Virus record (IMG/VR): IMGVR_UViG_3300024308_000021
Span: 5,467-69,466 of that record
Reading direction: 5' to 3' (one strand)
Source: a virus
DNA length: 64,000 nucleotides
Under the pieces are notes generated by a model. It made no database searches and was not told the DNA's origin. It saw nothing but the letters and a program-made list of their open reading frames with translations. The position numbers and the translations under genes are program-made. Positions 2,558 to 56,007 of this stretch are shown in pieces; within the stretch, counting starts at the first letter, position 1, and each line of letters starts with the position of its first letter.

Positions 2558-4632
2558 TGATCAAGCTCCGATCTGCGGTGGGCCACAACAGTGAACGAGG
2601 TCACTGTCTTCATGTTGTTACCGTACACGTGGATCTTACAGGTTTCGCTGTAACCACGTTGTTCGTCGTACTTGGTTTCGTAGGTATCGGGAACGATCAC
2701 TACACGCTCGTCGAAACGATCTTTAACCAGTTCACGAACACGACGGTTGATCCGGTCAGCGCGCTGAGCCGGGGTCAGATCAGAACGACCGGTGAAGTCA
2801 CGCCACACACGGAAGTTGACCTTCTGAACTTCCACGCAGATGATCATGTTGATCAGAGCATTCAGGATACTGGTATCGTCACGATACACAGTCTGCATGC
2901 CAGCGTAGAAATCAGAACGAGTGTCGTAGGACTGAGCCCAGATCATCCCGTTATCCCAGTCTTTGATACGGTTCGGATCAGACTTCCAAGTGGTCTGGAG
3001 ACCCTTGAGCAGTTTGACTTTGTTGTTCGGAGTAATGTCAGCAGCAAAGCGGCCTTTCATCACACCGTCACCGGAACCACAGTACTGAGACAGAGCGTAC
3101 GCGATTTCGAAGGTGCCCGGAACCAGCTTCTTCCAAGCGGAGTTGATCAGGTAACCCGACTGACCTACGATAGCAGCACGTACCACGGAAGTACCGTAGA
3201 GTTCAGCTTCAGGGAACTGCTCTGCGGCAGTGCGCAGCGCGATCGCCATACTGGACTCGGTAGCCTGGTCGTTCTGCTTGAGCGACACGTCCTGAGTGGA
3301 CAGACAGACCCAAACGTCTTTACGAGCGCCGAGTACTTTGAGCATCGACTTCTTGGTATCGATGTTAAAGCCGGTATCGACGTAGACAGACTGCGGGAAC
3401 CGCGCGATGTCCAGGTACTGGTTGGCCAGACCGCCGAAGTTATCGAACTGCTCTTTAACAGAGACGTTGAACGCTTCGTCAGACATTTCGCCATCAGCAC
3501 CGCCTTGCAGATACTGCACGGAGGTCTCGCTGAACACCACACCGCCGTCCAGGGTACCCTGTACTACCAGTGAGTGGAGTGGGTTGTTGTAAACATCCCG
3601 ACCAGTCAGTACGTTAACCAGGTACTTGGATTCCGGAACATCCGGCCAGGTAGGTTGCAGCGCGTGCTCTTTGGAGTAGATCTTGGCCAGTACGGCGTCG
3701 ACGTTAGCCTGGTACACGTGGAACTCACGCAGAGGACCGTAGATCGGCGCGAAGCCAGAGGTCGGGTCTACTGAACGGTAGCTCGGGATCACTACGTCAT
3801 CCGCGTGGTATTCGCGGTTGGTACGATCGTCGTAGGAGTTCGGACGCAGGGTGAAGTCCACGAAAGGAGCGGAGTTCAGATCCTGAGTGATCACCGGGGT
3901 GCTGCGAGCATTCGGACGCTTGAGCATCTGGAGACGATACATAAACGCACCCAGGCGAGTCATCAGAGACTCATCGGCCGGGGAGGAACTACGCAGGGTA
4001 GGAGCCATCAGGCGCACACCTACGTTGTCGCCGTCTTTACCGAAGTGGGCGTGATCCAGATCGAAGAACGGATAGAAGGTAGACTTCTCACCAGCACTGC
4101 CGGTCAGAGTCCCTTCTTTGGTAACGCCCAGACCGATACCATCGGGGTTGTCTTCAGTACCAGGACCGATGGGTTGCACGGACCACTTGACGATCACACC
4201 GGGACGGGTTTCACCAGTATCGACCGGTTGACCGTCTTGACCCAGTTTCAGAGAACCGTCGGGATTGCGTTCGTAGATCTTGACCACAGACTCCACGACC
4301 TCAGCGCCGAAACGCAGATTCGGACGCTTAGCACCAGTCGGGATAATACGCTGATAAACAGCGGACTGACCGGACTTGAGGAGAACCTCGTTGATGAAAG
4401 CTGTGGAGTGGTTGGCGTATGGACTGCGATAGTTCAGTGCATCGTCGCCGAAGATGCGCTTAGCATCCGCCGCGTTCAAGTGCAATGCATTCTCGTCGCC
4501 ACTGGGAGCGTAAAGGAATACGTGAGGGAGGAAGATAGGGAGCTGTTCCGGCTCCGGATCTACACGTCTCCCGGAAACGTCCTGGATGCCTTCGAGGATG
4601 GCAGCCGGAGACGCGTTTGCGTAATTGGACAT
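2554..4632 (-). CDS. contractile tail sheath protein (phiKZ gp29-like, ~692 aa)
   Basis: ATG 4632 after AAGGAG; sheath-like N-terminus (LPIFLPHVFLYAPSG...RIFG) and C-terminal domain (VYRDDTSILN...KIHVYGNNMKTV). Confidence 0.88.
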   Translation of the reverse strand: MSNYANASPAAILEGIQDVSGRRVDPEPEQLPIFLPHVFLYAPSGDENALHLNAADAKRIFGDDALNYRSPYANHSTAFINEVLLKSGQSAVYQRIIPTGAKRPNLRFGAEVVESVVKIYERNPDGSLKLGQDGQPVDTGETRPGVIVKWSVQPIGPGTEDNPDGIGLGVTKEGTLTGSAGEKSTFYPFFDLDHAHFGKDGDNVGVRLMAPTLRSSSPADESLMTRLGAFMYRLQMLKRPNARSTPVITQDLNSAPFVDFTLRPNSYDDRTNREYHADDVVIPSYRSVDPTSGFAPIYGPLREFHVYQANVDAVLAKIYSKEHALQPTWPDVPESKYLVNVLTGRDVYNNPLHSLVVQGTLDGGVVFSETSVQYLQGGADGEMSDEAFNVSVKEQFDNFGGLANQYLDIARFPQSVYVDTGFNIDTKKSMLKVLGARKDVWVCLSTQDVSLKQNDQATESSMAIALRTAAEQFPEAELYGTSVVRAAIVGQSGYLINSAWKKLVPGTFEIAYALSQYCGSGDGVMKGRFAADITPNNKVKLLKGLQTTWKSDPNRIKDWDNGMIWAQSYDTRSDFYAGMQTVYRDDTSILNALINMIICVEVQKVNFRVWRDFTGRSDLTPAQRADRINRRVRELVKDRFDERVVIVPDTYETKYDEQRGYSETCKIHVYGNNMKTVTSFTVVAHRRSELDQ

Positions 4633-4834: not shown

Positions 4835-5821
4835 ATGTTGCTGAAAACACCATACGACGCACCGGTCATGAAAGCCTATGACCTCAAAAAAATCCAATCC
4901 CAAGTAGCTGAAGCCATCGTAGCTGGTGAGTATGCTAGTCGTGAAAAACTCGACGAGTCTGCTGCTATCTACAGAACTCCTAATCCGATGTGGGATTTTG
5001 AGCTGGCTAATGACGTCGTGGCTATCGTGAAAAATACTGACTGGAAAACCACAGTCGATCCTTTCCCTATTCCTTTTAAGATGCGCACTGCTGCTGGTAA
5101 AGAGCTGTACGTCCTGGATGCTCGGATGTACACAGCTCCGGCCAACCACTACCGTCAGTACGGCATTATGCACAACCCGTCTGAGATTGGTGTGTATTCC
5201 GACATTATCTCTTGGATGCGTTGCTGGGATGCCCGTGAGGGTGGTGACATTCGTCGTGTGCATGACTACGTGACTGGTACTTTCGCTAACTGGATTGCCA
5301 GTGCTGTTTCCAGGATCACTGGTGTGAACGGTGGTGAGGATTACGATATCATTCGTTTCCTGGCAGCTTACTGGTTCCAGGCTCAGTTCTCTGAAGTACC
5401 TTACGAGGTTACTGTAGAAGAGCGTCTGCGGATGCGTCGCGTAATGACCAACTGCTGGCCTCGCCCGGATTCCGTGGTAGATCTGCAAACCAAGGACTTC
5501 GGTTACATCGGAAACCTGGAAGACTTCCTGGAAGCGGTTAAGAAACAGCTTCCTAACAATCGTCGGGTACACATGCTCAACCGGGCTTACTTCACACAGC
5601 AGATCGCCAACAGCTGGCGCGGCTTCCATGCTGGTGTGATGAGCAACGTGGCTATGGAGTATCCTCCTTTCTTTATCGCCATGTACTACTACTCGCTGAC
5701 CAACGGTTGGGCTAAAGATGTTGGTTTGGGTAAAGTAGCACAGAACCTGCGCGATACTCAAAAGCGTGCAGACTTCCTGGCCTCCTATCGGAGAACTATC
5801 AATGTCTGGAAACAGCCGTAA
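4835..5821 (+). CDS. virion structural protein (phiKZ gp28-like)
   Basis: 328 aa, GGAAGG RBS, divergent from the sheath as in the phiKZ-like core block. Confidence 0.6.
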   Translation: MLLKTPYDAPVMKAYDLKKIQSQVAEAIVAGEYASREKLDESAAIYRTPNPMWDFELANDVVAIVKNTDWKTTVDPFPIPFKMRTAAGKELYVLDARMYTAPANHYRQYGIMHNPSEIGVYSDIISWMRCWDAREGGDIRRVHDYVTGTFANWIASAVSRITGVNGGEDYDIIRFLAAYWFQAQFSEVPYEVTVEERLRMRRVMTNCWPRPDSVVDLQTKDFGYIGNLEDFLEAVKKQLPNNRRVHMLNRAYFTQQIANSWRGFHAGVMSNVAMEYPPFFIAMYYYSLTNGWAKDVGLGKVAQNLRDTQKRADFLASYRRTINVWKQP

Positions 5822-28541: not shown

Positions 28542-28575
28542 AGAGGGCTTCGGCCCTCTTTTTTTTTTATTTTTA
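28542..28575 (+). terminator. intrinsic terminator
   Basis: AGAGGGC-ttcg-GCCCTCT plus long T run. Confidence 0.85.
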
Positions 28576-52248: not shown

Positions 52249-52276
52249 AGAGGAGCTTAGTCTCCTCTTTTTTTTT
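52249..52276 (+). terminator. intrinsic terminator
   Basis: AGAGGAG-cttagt-CTCCTCT plus T run. Confidence 0.8.
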
Positions 52277-52359: not shown

Positions 52360-52587
52360 ATGACAGTAAGCGATCTAACCTTAGACATCATACGCGCTAA
52401 ACGCGAGTGTCGTGCCTACCTGTGGAGTCTCCACAAACACCGCCTGACCTGGCGTATGCGTGCAGTAGTGTGTCTGTTCCTAGCAGTACACTTCGCACGT
52501 GACCTCCGTATGACCTGGACTTACGTACACGTAGAGCGAATGATTCGCCTGCTGGGTCTGGATAAAGGAGGATCCAAATGTCGCTGA
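52360..52587 (+). CDS. small basic hypothetical protein
   Basis: 75 aa, AAGGAG RBS. Confidence 0.7.
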   Translation: MTVSDLTLDIIRAKRECRAYLWSLHKHRLTWRMRAVVCLFLAVHFARDLRMTWTYVHVERMIRLLGLDKGGSKCR

Positions 52588-53015
52588 CACCTGCAAAACT
52601 AAAGTCACATCGTGACGAAGCCCAACGTAACGCCGAACAAGGCTTTGCTAATGGGATACTAAAAGCATTATGTGGCGAAGGGTTTTCACCCATAGAAGCT
52701 ACTAACCGTTACTCACGACCAACCCCAGGAGGAACCTTAGTAAAAGCCCGCTCTGAGTTATACCCAGAGTCTGGGTATGAGTGTCTAGTAGTAGCCGAGG
52801 GAAACCGCTACATAGACAACCACAGCTTCGCAATTCGTGTGATGCACGATCTTCTGATCGGTCTGTACCGCAAGGATCTACCAAAGGAACAGAAACACCG
52901 ATACCTGAAACCAGGTGGCAGTGGAATGACTTACACAGTCTCTGATCCCTGGAGGAAGTGTAAGGTTACGATGATGTACGATCGCATTGTAATCGACTTC
53001 CGTAAACTACGTTAG
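52578..53015 (+). CDS. hypothetical protein
   Basis: 145 aa, GGAGG RBS. Confidence 0.75.
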   Translation: MSLTPAKLKSHRDEAQRNAEQGFANGILKALCGEGFSPIEATNRYSRPTPGGTLVKARSELYPESGYECLVVAEGNRYIDNHSFAIRVMHDLLIGLYRKDLPKEQKHRYLKPGGSGMTYTVSDPWRKCKVTMMYDRIVIDFRKLR

Positions 53016-53018
53016 AGA

Positions 53019-53066
53019 CATAAAAGAGGAGGGCGGTAGCCCTCCTCTTAAGTTTCTTTTTTTTTT
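53019..53066. terminator. bidirectional terminator
   Basis: AAGAGGAGGGC-ggta-GCCCTCCTCTT; CATA upstream, T run downstream. Confidence 0.85.
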
Positions 53067-53070
53067 CGAG

Positions 53071-53523
53071 TTAACGCCATTCGTTGTAGATGTAGACTTC
53101 GTTTGGGATGCGATCAAACCAGTACCTAAAGATATGTCTTACCTTACGATACTCCAGTGTGCCAGTCTGTTGCCCACATCCTAACGCTGGTGAGTAGATT
53201 TTTGCATTACCCAAACGATCCACAGACTCTACAAGTTTACGAAGGTTTTGCTCCAACAACTCAGTAGTAGAGACGTCATACCAATGGTGTTTAGTAGGTA
53301 TCAGTAATAGCTTTAAGTCTGGGTTGATATCAAACAACATCAGACTGTTTAAACCAAACCGTCCCTCCTTACACATCACACGGTATCTACGGTAAACTTC
53401 AGGATAGCGACTACGAATGTAAGCAGCTATTCCTTTACCCATGATACCATCGATATTCACAGGTACTAGCAATATCCCCTCGTCGTGTTTAAACACGTCA
53501 CCAGGGCCTTCGTAAACGACCAT
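53071..53523 (-). CDS. macrodomain ADP-ribosylglycohydrolase (DarG/TARG1-like)
   Basis: PVNIDGIMGKGIA, IPTK, PALGCG. Confidence 0.88.
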   Translation of the reverse strand: MVVYEGPGDVFKHDEGILLVPVNIDGIMGKGIAAYIRSRYPEVYRRYRVMCKEGRFGLNSLMLFDINPDLKLLLIPTKHHWYDVSTTELLEQNLRKLVESVDRLGNAKIYSPALGCGQQTGTLEYRKVRHIFRYWFDRIPNEVYIYNEWR

Positions 53524-53550: not shown

Positions 53551-54075
53551 TTACCCACGAGCTCCACCCTGAGCTCGCAAAGCTTCCGCTTTAGCCTTCT
53601 CTTCAGCAAACTTACGATCACGAGTCTCTCGTACTTTGACTTCAGCAGCGATTTCAAACCACTGCTCCACCGCCTCTGGAGGTAACTCCAAAAACTGATC
53701 AATAGTCCATCCCGTCAGTTCATGTATTCCGAACTTCTTGAATCGATAGGCTCGATCGATAATCCACGCACCAGGATTTCTGGGTACAAACGCTGCTTTA
53801 ACAGAGTCGATACCCATTCCAGTACCCAAGTTGTTCCTGCGCACAGGATGCGGATCATCCACTGTAGGAGTGCCGTCCACGTCGTACGTGTAGTGCACAC
53901 CCATCAGTCTCCAGTAAGTCTCACGTATAAGCTTGCGAGCTTGAAGTAGTTCCAACCCACCTTCGATCTCCACGAGATCATCTAGAATATCGGAGGCAGT
54001 TACGTCAAAACGTATCCCAGTTAAGACACGCTTACGTTTCGGGTTGTCATTCTCAGCTTGTGAGTAAGAATTGTA
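53551..54075 (-). CDS. start-less ORF, probable -1 frameshift extension of the upstream gp77-like gene
   Basis: Frame open through the slippery site; no ATG/GTG/TTG until GTG 53973, which lacks an RBS. Confidence 0.65.
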   Translation of the reverse strand, partial: YNSYSQAENDNPKRKRVLTGIRFDVTASDILDDLVEIEGGLELLQARKLIRETYWRLMGVHYTYDVDGTPTVDDPHPVRRNNLGTGMGIDSVKAAFVPRNPGAWIIDRAYRFKKFGIHELTGWTIDQFLELPPEAVEQWFEIAAEVKVRETRDRKFAEEKAKAEALRAQGGARG

Positions 54076-55607
54076 AAAAAAAGTTTGATCGGTGAGATCG
54101 GAATCAGATACGGATCTCTGGCTACGTGATCGACCTGGGTCTCACCACACTTAGCGCAGACGTAGTTCCAGATAGCGATCATAGTAACAGCGCGAGCTGC
54201 AAAGAAACGATCGATGTGTTCCAGGAACTTGGAGTTGAACTCCGAGTTACCAGTCATACTGCCGACGTGTAATGCGATCTCGAGTTCGTCGTCGATATAA
54301 CCATCTTCTTCACCAGCATCGTTGTAAAAAGCGATGCGATGTACGAAGTGAGAATACTGACGCAGTGAACTCAGACCAGCTTGCTCAGTGATATAAGCAT
54401 CACGTTCCTTAGCAGACATCTTGCCAGTAAACGCAGCTTCCACTGAAAGCTCGAGTTCACGAACCCACTGGAACCCTTCGTCAACCCATTGACGAATACT
54501 CGGCTCTACCAGCTCCAGACTCATGTTACCAAACCGGAATACCGACAGACCATCAGTCCCTTCCTGAGTCAGGAACTCAGCACGATATGCTGCGATCTGT
54601 TCCAGGGTGTGGCGTTTGGTACGCTGTGCCATGTGGATCTTCTGTTTCTCAGTCAGACGATCTGTACGCACGCGCTGTAGATCAGAAAGATCGATGTAAG
54701 CGCGTTCCACAGCTTTACATTTACCAGTAGCGCCCGTACAAGCCCGAGACATCGGGAAGCCTTGTAAATACAAAGCCAGACCTACACCCCAGAGCAAGTC
54801 CTCGTGCTCGTCAAAAGGAATGAGCTCGTAGAGTTCCTGAGGATCTTGGTAAACTACCGTAGCATCGTAGATGCAGGAGATAGCCAGGTCGATCAGAGGC
54901 TTACGTGAGTAAACGTCGGTCAGTGAGTTGGTACGCCCGCCACTACGACGACCAAACTCGTCTTTCTGCTGCTCGCATTTCAGACGAGTCTCGTTCAGAG
55001 CAGTGTCGCCAGGAGCTTTAATGCTAACCCAGAAACCAGCTTTGTAGAGAGGGATCTGTACCACACCACCCACTGAGGTAACGGCCGCGATCTTAGCGGC
55101 AGCGCGAGCGCCAGTCAGAGGTTGGTTACCGCCTCCGAAAGAAGGCTTACCTGCACGCAGACGTTGAGTCAGGTGTTCTACGTAGTTACCCCACGCCCCC
55201 TGCTCCAGAGCTTTCTGCTTGATGTTAGAGTTCTCGTGCAGAATACCGCCCGCACTACCAGTCAGAACCCACTCAGCAGCATCCTGATCATCCAGGAACT
55301 CGTCGTCCATAGACAGGTCATTGAACTGCATCAGCAGATCGTTAGTGGTTTCCAGGGCATCCGACGGGAGGAAGAGATCGATCTCAGCCGCAGAAGGCTC
55401 TCCACGACCAGAACGAATCATGGAATGAGGAGACATCACACCTACGTGTGTCTGCTTCCCTTCGTAAGGAAGCTTGGTGAACTTAGGAGCTTGTGGCTCC
55501 TCAGCATCCGGCTTCTCTGCTACTGGGGGAGCGTGTTCCACTTCCGGGACTTCCGGCAAATCAGCCGCGACTTCAGTCGCGGGCTGGTCGTTATTAATTT
55601 CAGACAT
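54021..55607 (-). CDS. conserved protein (phiKZ gp77-like), possible tail/baseplate assembly chaperone (T4 gp26-like)
   Basis: 528 aa; acidic/Pro N-terminus, CxxC near C-terminus, ends ..PIKLFF like gp26-type proteins. Confidence 0.6.
   Translation of the reverse strand: MSEINNDQPATEVAADLPEVPEVEHAPPVAEKPDAEEPQAPKFTKLPYEGKQTHVGVMSPHSMIRSGRGEPSAAEIDLFLPSDALETTNDLLMQFNDLSMDDEFLDDQDAAEWVLTGSAGGILHENSNIKQKALEQGAWGNYVEHLTQRLRAGKPSFGGGNQPLTGARAAAKIAAVTSVGGVVQIPLYKAGFWVSIKAPGDTALNETRLKCEQQKDEFGRRSGGRTNSLTDVYSRKPLIDLAISCIYDATVVYQDPQELYELIPFDEHEDLLWGVGLALYLQGFPMSRACTGATGKCKAVERAYIDLSDLQRVRTDRLTEKQKIHMAQRTKRHTLEQIAAYRAEFLTQEGTDGLSVFRFGNMSLELVEPSIRQWVDEGFQWVRELELSVEAAFTGKMSAKERDAYITEQAGLSSLRQYSHFVHRIAFYNDAGEEDGYIDDELEIALHVGSMTGNSEFNSKFLEHIDRFFAARAVTMIAIWNYVCAKCGETQVDHVARDPYLIPISPIKLFFTILTHKLRMTTRNVSVS
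54075..54081 (-). other. -1 programmed ribosomal frameshift slippery heptamer T TTT TTT
   Basis: CTT TTT TTT ACA (L-F-F-T), 17 codons before the stop; T8 run 54082-54075. Confidence 0.65.
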
Positions 55608-56007
55608 TTACTGCTCCTTGAGAGTTACGCAGTTCACCAATGATGGTAGCTACGCTTTTAACACCACTGTCAGCCCAGTCTTCCATCCAGCGCTGGTATT
55701 GTTCACCAGCCTGCAAGACTGAACCGATATTCGATACACCTACGTTACGACCGACCAGGTGTTGGACAGACTGATCGATCTGATCGAGTCGTGAGCGGAA
55801 GACTTTAACCTGCTCTACCAGAGCAGATGCGTTCTGGTTTACCAGACCTACATTGAATACACGACCTTCAGCGTTAGCTTGACGAATCAGAGTTCCAACC
55901 TCACATGCTTTATTCAGTTGCTGACGGCATTGATCGGAGAGTTGCGGGATCTCGTTAGTCGGAGTCGGGCTGACGTAAGGGCGACGAGTTCTGCTGTTAC
56001 TTGGCAT
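55600..56007 (-). CDS. helical hypothetical protein
   Basis: 135 aa; carries AAGGAG for the next gene and overlaps its start. Confidence 0.7.
   Translation of the reverse strand: MPSNSRTRRPYVSPTPTNEIPQLSDQCRQQLNKACEVGTLIRQANAEGRVFNVGLVNQNASALVEQVKVFRSRLDQIDQSVQHLVGRNVGVSNIGSVLQAGEQYQRWMEDWADSGVKSVATIIGELRNSQGAVNV

Follow-up and report, generated by a model that had tools for sequence, protein, structure and literature searches.

The 64,000-nucleotide (nt) stretch analysed here (positions 5,467 to 69,466 of IMG/VR virus record IMGVR_UViG_3300024308_000021; hereafter, the window) is part of a 125.6-kb viral contig with an estimated completeness of ~45%, and its source is an uncultured phiKZ-like giant phage. 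On its minus strand lies a 528-codon open reading frame (ORF) that belongs to the phiKZ gp77 family; close to the 3' end of this ORF, at a run of eight T residues, it meets a second long open frame shifted by -1. The following features make up the site.

54021-55607, minus strand: zero-frame ORF of 528 amino acids (aa) plus stop, the short product; matches phrog_4585 and, by tblastn, PHIKZ077.
54075-54082, minus strand: T8 run holding the heptamer T_TTT_TTT (54081-54075); zero-frame codons CTT TTT TTT.
54021-54074, minus strand: putative dual-coding overlap; zero frame, 17 codons (TILTHKLRMTTRNVSVS) plus stop; -1 frame, YNSYSQAENDNPKRKRVL.
53551-54075, minus strand: -1 frame extension of 174 codons plus stop; C-terminal part of a predicted 685-aa long product.

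The gene belongs to the phiKZ gp77 family (phrog_4585), which is core gene cg18 of the Chimalliviridae; the 528-aa ORF matched phrog_4585 with an E value of 1.8e-74, residues 16-522 aligning to profile positions 21-542 of 551. Near the end of this ORF the minus strand reads ...ATC AAA CTT TTT TTT ACA ATT..., and the first T of the heptamer is the third codon position of the zero frame, as in an X_XXY_YYZ slippery site. Past the T run the zero frame continues for 17 codons to a TAA at 54023-54021, whereas the -1 frame is free of stop codons from 54075 to 53551 and translates into 174 aa (YNSYSQAENDNPKRKRVLTG...IDRAYRF...IDQFLELP...ARG). The predicted products are thus 528 aa (short) and 511+174 = 685 aa (long), and the junction peptide of the latter would be LFFYNSYSQAENDNPK. 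The earliest ATG, GTG or TTG of the -1 frame in the window is a GTG at 53973 (residue 35), with no Shine-Dalgarno-like motif in the 18 bases 5' of it. The -1 frame also stays free of stops over 22 codons upstream of the slip site, and none of these is ATG, GTG, TTG, CTG, ATT, ATC or ATA. Gene callers trim the -1 extension to an ORF of 117-150 aa. On all these points our results agreed with those of an earlier model-made reading of the letters alone (hereafter, the sequence-only reading), which had proposed a programmed -1 frameshift at this heptamer: the position and phase of the site, the frame open to 53551 with its IDRAYRF and IDQFLELP motifs, the lack of a start before a GTG without a ribosome binding site, the two product sizes and the junction peptide were all recovered. 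There are 12 separate runs of T7 or longer on the two strands of the window, and the T8 at 54082-54075 is the only one that joins two long open frames.

Close relatives were found by exact-protein look-up, on contigs from other samples and other assemblers, and 11 metagenomic relatives (L003, L004, L005, L008, L009, L010, L011, L032, L033, L035 and L036) were compared with the window. The slippery site was in phase in all of them (11/11). The same T8 was present in five independent assemblies (L003, L004, L005, L008 and L009; extension identity 83-94%), which contradicts the homopolymer error that had been named as a possible refutation of the frameshift. The corresponding codons were ACT TTT TTT in L010, L011 and L032 (extension identity 64-67%), ACT TTT TTC in L033 (47% identity in the extension and 67% in the gp77 part) and AGT TTT TTG in L035 and L036 (28-29% identity in the gp77 part). 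In L004, L010 and L033 the -1 frame is closed by a TAA three codons ahead of the heptamer's end, and therefore it can be entered only at the T run; no start-like codon was found in the -1 frame upstream of the slip site in these three. IMG/VR scans with both proteins returned no loci, and a megablast search of the region against the phage collection gave no match.

The alignment of the -1 protein showed conservation from residue 1 onward, and residues 1-40 were kept despite the scatter of the called starts, which fall at residues 25, 30, 35, 41 and 58 among the relatives. The first ATG, GTG or TTG of the -1 frame lies at residues 25-41 in five aligned members of the window clade and at residue 21 in L033. 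Invariant -1 residues before residue 35 were Y1, Y4, S5, Q6, A7, E8, P12, R14, K15, R16, L18, D24, V25, D29 and L31-L34. In residues 20-38, the stretch from the zero-frame stop to the first shared start-like codon, the ratio of non-synonymous to synonymous polymorphism (pN/pS) was 0.33 in the -1 frame versus 1.29 and 1.38 in the other two frames, as estimated over 19 codons from non-independent sequence pairs. A comparison of the window with L004 over the same residues showed consecutive synonymous changes. In the 54-nt overlap, 80% of the nucleotide columns were invariant, versus 59% upstream and 39% downstream, and both frames had a pN/pS of less than 0.5, a pattern that dual coding would be expected to give. 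What was observed directly is the anatomy of the site, its conservation and, in a stretch that has no start codons, a coding signature in the -1 frame; these observations suggest that the -1 frame is translated from the heptamer onward. The zero-frame tail after the T run was likewise kept in all relatives. Judged from sequence, the 528-aa short form is real, because this tail is conserved and matches the end of both phiKZ gp77 (533 aa, which ends at the equivalent place) and the phrog_4585 profile.

A tblastn search with the window protein located the gene in 201 jumbo-phage records, all at less than 30% identity and PHIKZ077 among them (E 9e-31). We read 21 published records, picked to spread over the tblastn ranking: phiKZ, PhiPA3, 201phi2-1, Goslar, RAY, SPN3US, PCH45, RSL2, FLC6, FLC9, LucasX, Xoo-sp14, KpLz-2_45, SPLA10, Noxifer, EarlPhillipIV, 2050HW, sm033, Yong MS32, Wellington and Bacillus phage AgentSmith. 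In every one of the 21, a conserved Phe-Phe site was followed by an open -1 frame of 151-176 codons that ran to the stop of the gene annotated next, which was itself in the -1 frame (21/21). The annotated start of this gene scattered from 27 codons before the site to 88 after it (residue -27 to 88). The heptamer was T_TTT_TTN, in phase, in 18 of the 21 phages and G_TTT_TTY in the remaining 3 (PhiPA3, FLC9 and Noxifer). T_TTT_TTC occurred in Xoo-sp14, SPN3US, Wellington, sm033 and the metagenomic relative L033, and G_TTT_TTC in Noxifer. The first Phe codon of the site was TTT in 23/23 rows of the comparison, whereas TTC is favoured elsewhere in most of these genes; outside the site, TTT accounted for 0/14, 0/17 and 0/18 of the Phe codons in Xoo-sp14, FLC6 and RSL2, respectively. 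The naive product of the probabilities for TTT at the site was 10^-15, a figure that is too extreme, since the rows share ancestry.

The pairs phiKZ gp77 + gp76.4, Goslar gp081 + gp082, RAY gp267 + gp266 and 201phi2-1 gp136 + gp135 present the same gene and the same site as the window: a T run encodes FF, and from there the -1 frame stays open into the gene annotated next. The window protein is only 20-26% identical to these homologues, and its extension is recognisable in them by profile comparison only. The extension was homologous to those of the published phages by hhalign (probability 96.9%, E 1.9e-10, 117 columns). This link needed a profile-profile comparison, because a profile search with the window-clade extension against 1.84 billion proteins returned two close relatives only; tblastn with the extension alone gave a single match, at chance level. 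None of the 21 published records carried a frameshift annotation, and no in-frame fusion of the two parts was found among the 32 loci examined. The comparison of homologues thus strongly supported the programmed -1 shift of the sequence-only reading, including its expectations that the T run and the -1 overlap would be conserved in gp77 homologues and that the downstream ORF would have no conserved start.

The annotation of Erwinia phage RAY differs in form: gp266 (L012 2532-3080) has its annotated start 136 nt inside gp267, its annotators having run the -1 ORF back across the slip site rather than marking a frameshift. An overlap with the upstream gene is also annotated for 201phi2-1 gp135 and Wellington gp52.

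Programmed -1 ribosomal frameshifting in this phiKZ gp77-family gene appears to be the best explanation of these data (rough probability 0.8), and slippage of either kind, ribosomal or transcriptional, is very likely on the same comparative evidence. In the mechanism that we propose, most ribosomes would read CUU UUU UUU ACA and stop 17 codons later, yielding the 528-aa form. A fraction would slip with two tRNA-Phe on UUU UUU, both re-pairing one base back on U_UUU_UU; the slipped ribosomes would then read UAC (Tyr) next and continue for 174 codons to give the 685-aa form. In this long form the last 17 residues of the short product, which make up most of a predicted C-terminal helix, would be replaced by a mostly helical domain. 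We infer that the slippage takes place on the ribosome, and we infer its efficiency and function likewise. The last base of the heptamer varies among relatives (T, C, A or G), some of which have a run of no more than T5, and therefore X_XXY_YYZ slippage fits better than polymerase stuttering.

Several points weigh against this explanation. The 685-aa trans-frame product is a prediction, for the window and for its relatives alike. No conserved stimulatory structure was found: an alifold helix starts ~36 nt downstream of the site without compensatory pairs (pseudoknots were outside the search), and the single-sequence fold had a z-score of -0.95. There was no Shine-Dalgarno-like element upstream of the slip site either. 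In the three published phages with G_TTT_TTY, the P-site tRNA's re-pairing would be mismatched, and the test of selection is a short one on sequence pairs that share history. Finally, at least the last ~80 residues of the phiKZ extension may also be expressed alone from a shorter RNA, because RNA sequencing (RNA-seq) of phiKZ at 15 min after infection gave 7995 reads per kilobase per million mapped reads over PHIKZ076.4 versus 1288 over PHIKZ077, a ~6-fold higher value (PMC12571901, supplementary file 7). Such expression leaves the conserved 85 codons upstream of it unexplained, and it would therefore add to the frameshift, not replace it. Since neither a conserved stimulatory structure nor an upstream Shine-Dalgarno-like element was detected, the frameshift efficiency is probably modest. 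Stimulatory elements are not obligatory in phage frameshift cases.

Three other accounts of the locus were weighed against programmed frameshifting. If the phage RNA polymerase stuttered on the T8 and added one U, the same 685-aa protein would arise. T8 is near the run length at which bacterial and phage polymerases slip, a multisubunit RNA polymerase of the phage itself is encoded in the window, and the product would be identical, so that sequence comparison cannot separate the two kinds of slippage in the T8 lineages. Many relatives, however, have only 5-7 T residues, the conserved feature is the phase of the heptamer and not the length of the run, and the last heptamer base is free, as the X_XXY_YYZ model predicts; we consider transcriptional slippage very unlikely. 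Very unlikely, too, is that the two frames are separate genes, the second having its own start (GTG 53973, TTG 53955 or ATG 53904), perhaps by re-initiation, and the T run being kept for Phe-Phe. All database records and gene callers annotate the locus in this manner, and the phiKZ coverage described above is higher over gp76.4 than over gp77. However, before any start codon is reached there are 34-40 conserved codons that bear a coding signature, and the start positions are not conserved across phages (residues -27 to 88). The TTG at residue 41, which is common to 4/5 close relatives, is preceded by GGTGGG, but this motif is 0-1 base from the TTG, too near for a ribosome binding site, and is missing in L010. 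A need for Phe-Phe also fails to explain the constant TTT in genes that otherwise use TTC, nor does it account for the finding that in 21/21 phages the next gene occupies the -1 frame and no -1 stop comes in between.

The window is a metagenome-assembled fragment in which one extra T would join the frames, and so the locus could in principle be a true 685-codon ORF with T9 that was altered by a homopolymer miscall or by a recent frameshift mutation. We give this account almost no credence: T8 stands in five independent assemblies, the two parts were never in one frame among the 32 loci, and the conserved zero-frame tail corresponds to the place where phiKZ gp77 and the phrog_4585 profile normally end.

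Conserved -1 frameshifting is known from the tail assembly chaperone genes, such as lambda G/GT, and the P2 E/E' genes slip on T_TTT_TTG. The lambda case resembles the one proposed here in that a phage gene of morphogenesis type carries, close to its 3' end, an X_XXY_YYZ site where a -1 shift yields, besides the short product, one with the same N-terminus and an extended C-terminus; the site is conserved across very divergent phages and has no strong stimulatory structure evident. The heptamer of P2 E/E' is T-rich like that of the window, and L035 and L036 carry exactly T_TTT_TTG. The likeness ends with the protein and its place in the genome: the short product of lambda-type systems is about 100-140 aa versus 528 aa here, and their locus lies between the tube and tape measure genes, whereas the gp77-like gene lies among genes for RNA polymerase, DNA polymerase and helicase. 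Pfam and NCBIfam gave no match to a tail assembly chaperone family, and PHROGs gave phrog_4585 only. An identity as a tail assembly chaperone was ruled out by the 528-aa size, the gene neighbours and the lack of a family match. Because the neighbours are not tail genes, the comparison with G/GT and P2 concerns the mechanism and not the family; the pattern drawn from these systems in the sequence-only reading holds to that extent, and its remark that the locus is far from the tube and sheath genes was correct.

Gene 10 of T7 (10A/10B) offers a second parallel. A -1 shift at G_GUU_UUC there yields 10B, which adds ~50 residues to the capsid protein and is dispensable. As at the present locus, the shift comes late, on a U-rich site read by tRNA-Phe, and produces a C-terminal extension; in T7 an abundant phage protein carries it on a minority of its copies. 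Noxifer's G_TTT_TTC is built in a similar way. The extension described here differs from that of 10B: it is a conserved domain 150-176 residues long, and the protein to which it belongs is unnamed in the text of the Goslar virion paper.

The family alignment of gp77-like proteins contained four nearly invariant Cys residues (C290, C297, C484 and C487), which are probably a zinc site, and invariant or near-invariant F510 and F511. No match in Pfam or NCBIfam was found for any of the 22 family members scanned, and PF12322 had no match at E <= 0.05 in these 22. The AlphaFold model of the 528-aa protein had a mean predicted local distance difference test score (pLDDT) of 63.7 and a predicted template modelling score of 0.67, with the core at about 80. 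Searches of the PDB with this model gave no match (best Foldseek E 0.27; best VIA-align Z 4.5). In BFVD the top Foldseek matches were family members (template modelling [TM] score about 0.7), followed, over residues ~170-520, by models of ~250 aa labelled as T4-like 'baseplate hub assembly protein' or 'baseplate hub subunit', with E values from 7.5e-7 to 1e-2 and TM scores by target of 0.5-0.6, to be read against the pLDDT of 63.7 of the query model. In the ESM Atlas, PF12322 was present on 16% of the members of a neighbour cluster (score 0.92). The hhalign comparison with the single T4 gp51 and gp26 sequences was non-significant, at 4.8% and 12.5% probability. The likeness to T4 gp26 and gp51 put forward in the sequence-only reading therefore finds some echo at the level of predicted folds and none at the level of sequence (Pfam, hhalign), and a relation to gp26/gp51-type baseplate hub assembly proteins is weakly suggested by the models, as a lead, not a finding. 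The T4 proteins are 208 and 249 aa long, compared with 528 aa for the short product here. T4 gene 26 likewise yields two products, 26 and 26', the latter arising from an internal in-frame start, unlike the frameshift proposed for the gp77 family.

In the model of the short product the slip site lies at the start of the last helix (506-527), and the long form would therefore swap this helix for the extension. The extension modelled by itself was mostly helical with a mean pLDDT of 54.5, best in residues 103-171, and was too poor to search. The ESM Atlas held nothing at >=0.9 for it; a row at 0.83, P2 GpE, was at chance level and was not used.

Published work on the family touches this gene in few places. 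In the list of core genes, cg18 (Goslar gp081, PhiKZ gp077, RAY gp267) is a hypothetical protein given without the downstream ORF (PMC10299810 supplement). The text of the Goslar virion paper mentions neither the Goslar homologue gp081 nor gp082 (gp81/gp82); the 'gp77' of that paper is a different protein, a capsid decorator. Absence from that text would fit a non-structural assembly factor. Both antisense oligonucleotides (ASOs) against PHIKZ077 were toxic to the host, and the ASO screen therefore gives no PHIKZ077 phenotype; neither gene is mentioned in the transposon papers. Our best guess is that the protein functions as a non-virion assembly factor akin to the T4 gp26/gp51-type proteins, with a ratio of long to short form that would be set by the shift.

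The genes and the hairpin around the frameshift locus are the following.

55600-56007, minus strand: upstream gene of 135 aa; 8 bases shared between its stop and the start of the 528-aa ORF; position of phiKZ gp78.
53071-53523, minus strand: macro-domain gene of 150 aa; Pfam Macro E 7e-7; phrog_335 'phosphatase'.
53024-53049, minus strand: terminator-like hairpin of 11 pairs, GC-rich and two-sided, 3' of the macro-domain gene.

The 135-aa gene had no family match in PHROGs or Pfam, and its order upstream of the gp77-like gene is the same in the relatives and in phiKZ. From the slip site to the point where the extension ends there was no terminator-like site, and a strong hairpin follows the macro-domain gene. 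The 135-aa gene, the gp77-like gene (extension included) and the macro-domain gene, which is probably the last of the series, therefore look like one operon. That hairpin is followed by a T10 on the plus strand (53024-53066), between the convergent ORFs 52578-53015 (plus) and 53071-53523 (minus), and 53024-53066 looks like a two-sided intrinsic terminator. The wider neighbours of the gp77-like gene encode RNA polymerase subunits, DNA polymerase, helicase and the macro-domain protein, with no tail genes among them. A macro-domain gene directly after the extension is also found in the relatives of the window and in Goslar (gp083); phiKZ differs, small ORFs on the other strand coming next. In phiKZ (L001) the coverage at 4039-4281 may reflect an internal promoter within the -1 ORF, or a 3' RNA fragment there that is stable.

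Elsewhere in the window a second in-phase T_TTT_TTT lies at 4886-4892 on the minus strand, 34 codons before the stop of a 400-codon frame (5983-4784); it is probably not a recoding site, because no other open frame of >=80 codons spans it. Runs of T9 to T11 occur at 1680-1690, 28559-28568 and 52268-52276, all outside long open frames. TTTTTTT was matched 26 times in the window versus 5.9 in shuffled sequence, a ~4-fold excess that probably comes from terminator tails or phage promoter regions.

In full-text literature searches, no paper was found in which programmed frameshifting is linked to phiKZ-like phages, and no frameshift-related mention of gp76.4 or PHIKZ077, in agreement with the earlier remark that such a site had not been described in nucleus-forming jumbo phages. 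To the published phages the window adds a divergent uncultured clade that carries T8, together with a test of selection where the -1 frame has no start codon. The recoding is thus of a known kind, in a core gene of a much-studied phage family: the gp77 family is a core gene (cg18, PMC10299810) of the nucleus-forming jumbo phages, and phiKZ, Goslar, PhiPA3, 201phi2-1, RAY and SPN3US are heavily studied models in whose culturable members the frameshift is directly testable. A broader interpretation, which we regard as doubtful at present, is that this is an ancient obligatory frameshift of jumbo-myovirus assembly, common to all Chimalliviridae and at least one Bacillus jumbo phage, in which the added helical domain of the long form would serve to anchor a hub assembly factor of gp26/gp51 type on its target, the slip fixing the ratio. 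In some phages, phiKZ being one, separate production of the end of that domain would then bring the products of the locus to three, in parallel with T4 gene 26/26'.

If the frameshift is true, the locus is mis-annotated in all 21 records read and probably in most of the 201 records that bear a homologue, since these would show a small gene that is truncated and whose start is arbitrary, and would miss a protein of ~680 aa. Where knock-down, transposon or proteomic screens score the two ORFs as different genes, their results would be misread, and the conserved extension would count as part of the core gene. The site would then stand beside the tail-chaperone G/GT frameshift as a second, independent and deeply conserved recoding site in the morphogenesis of tailed phages.

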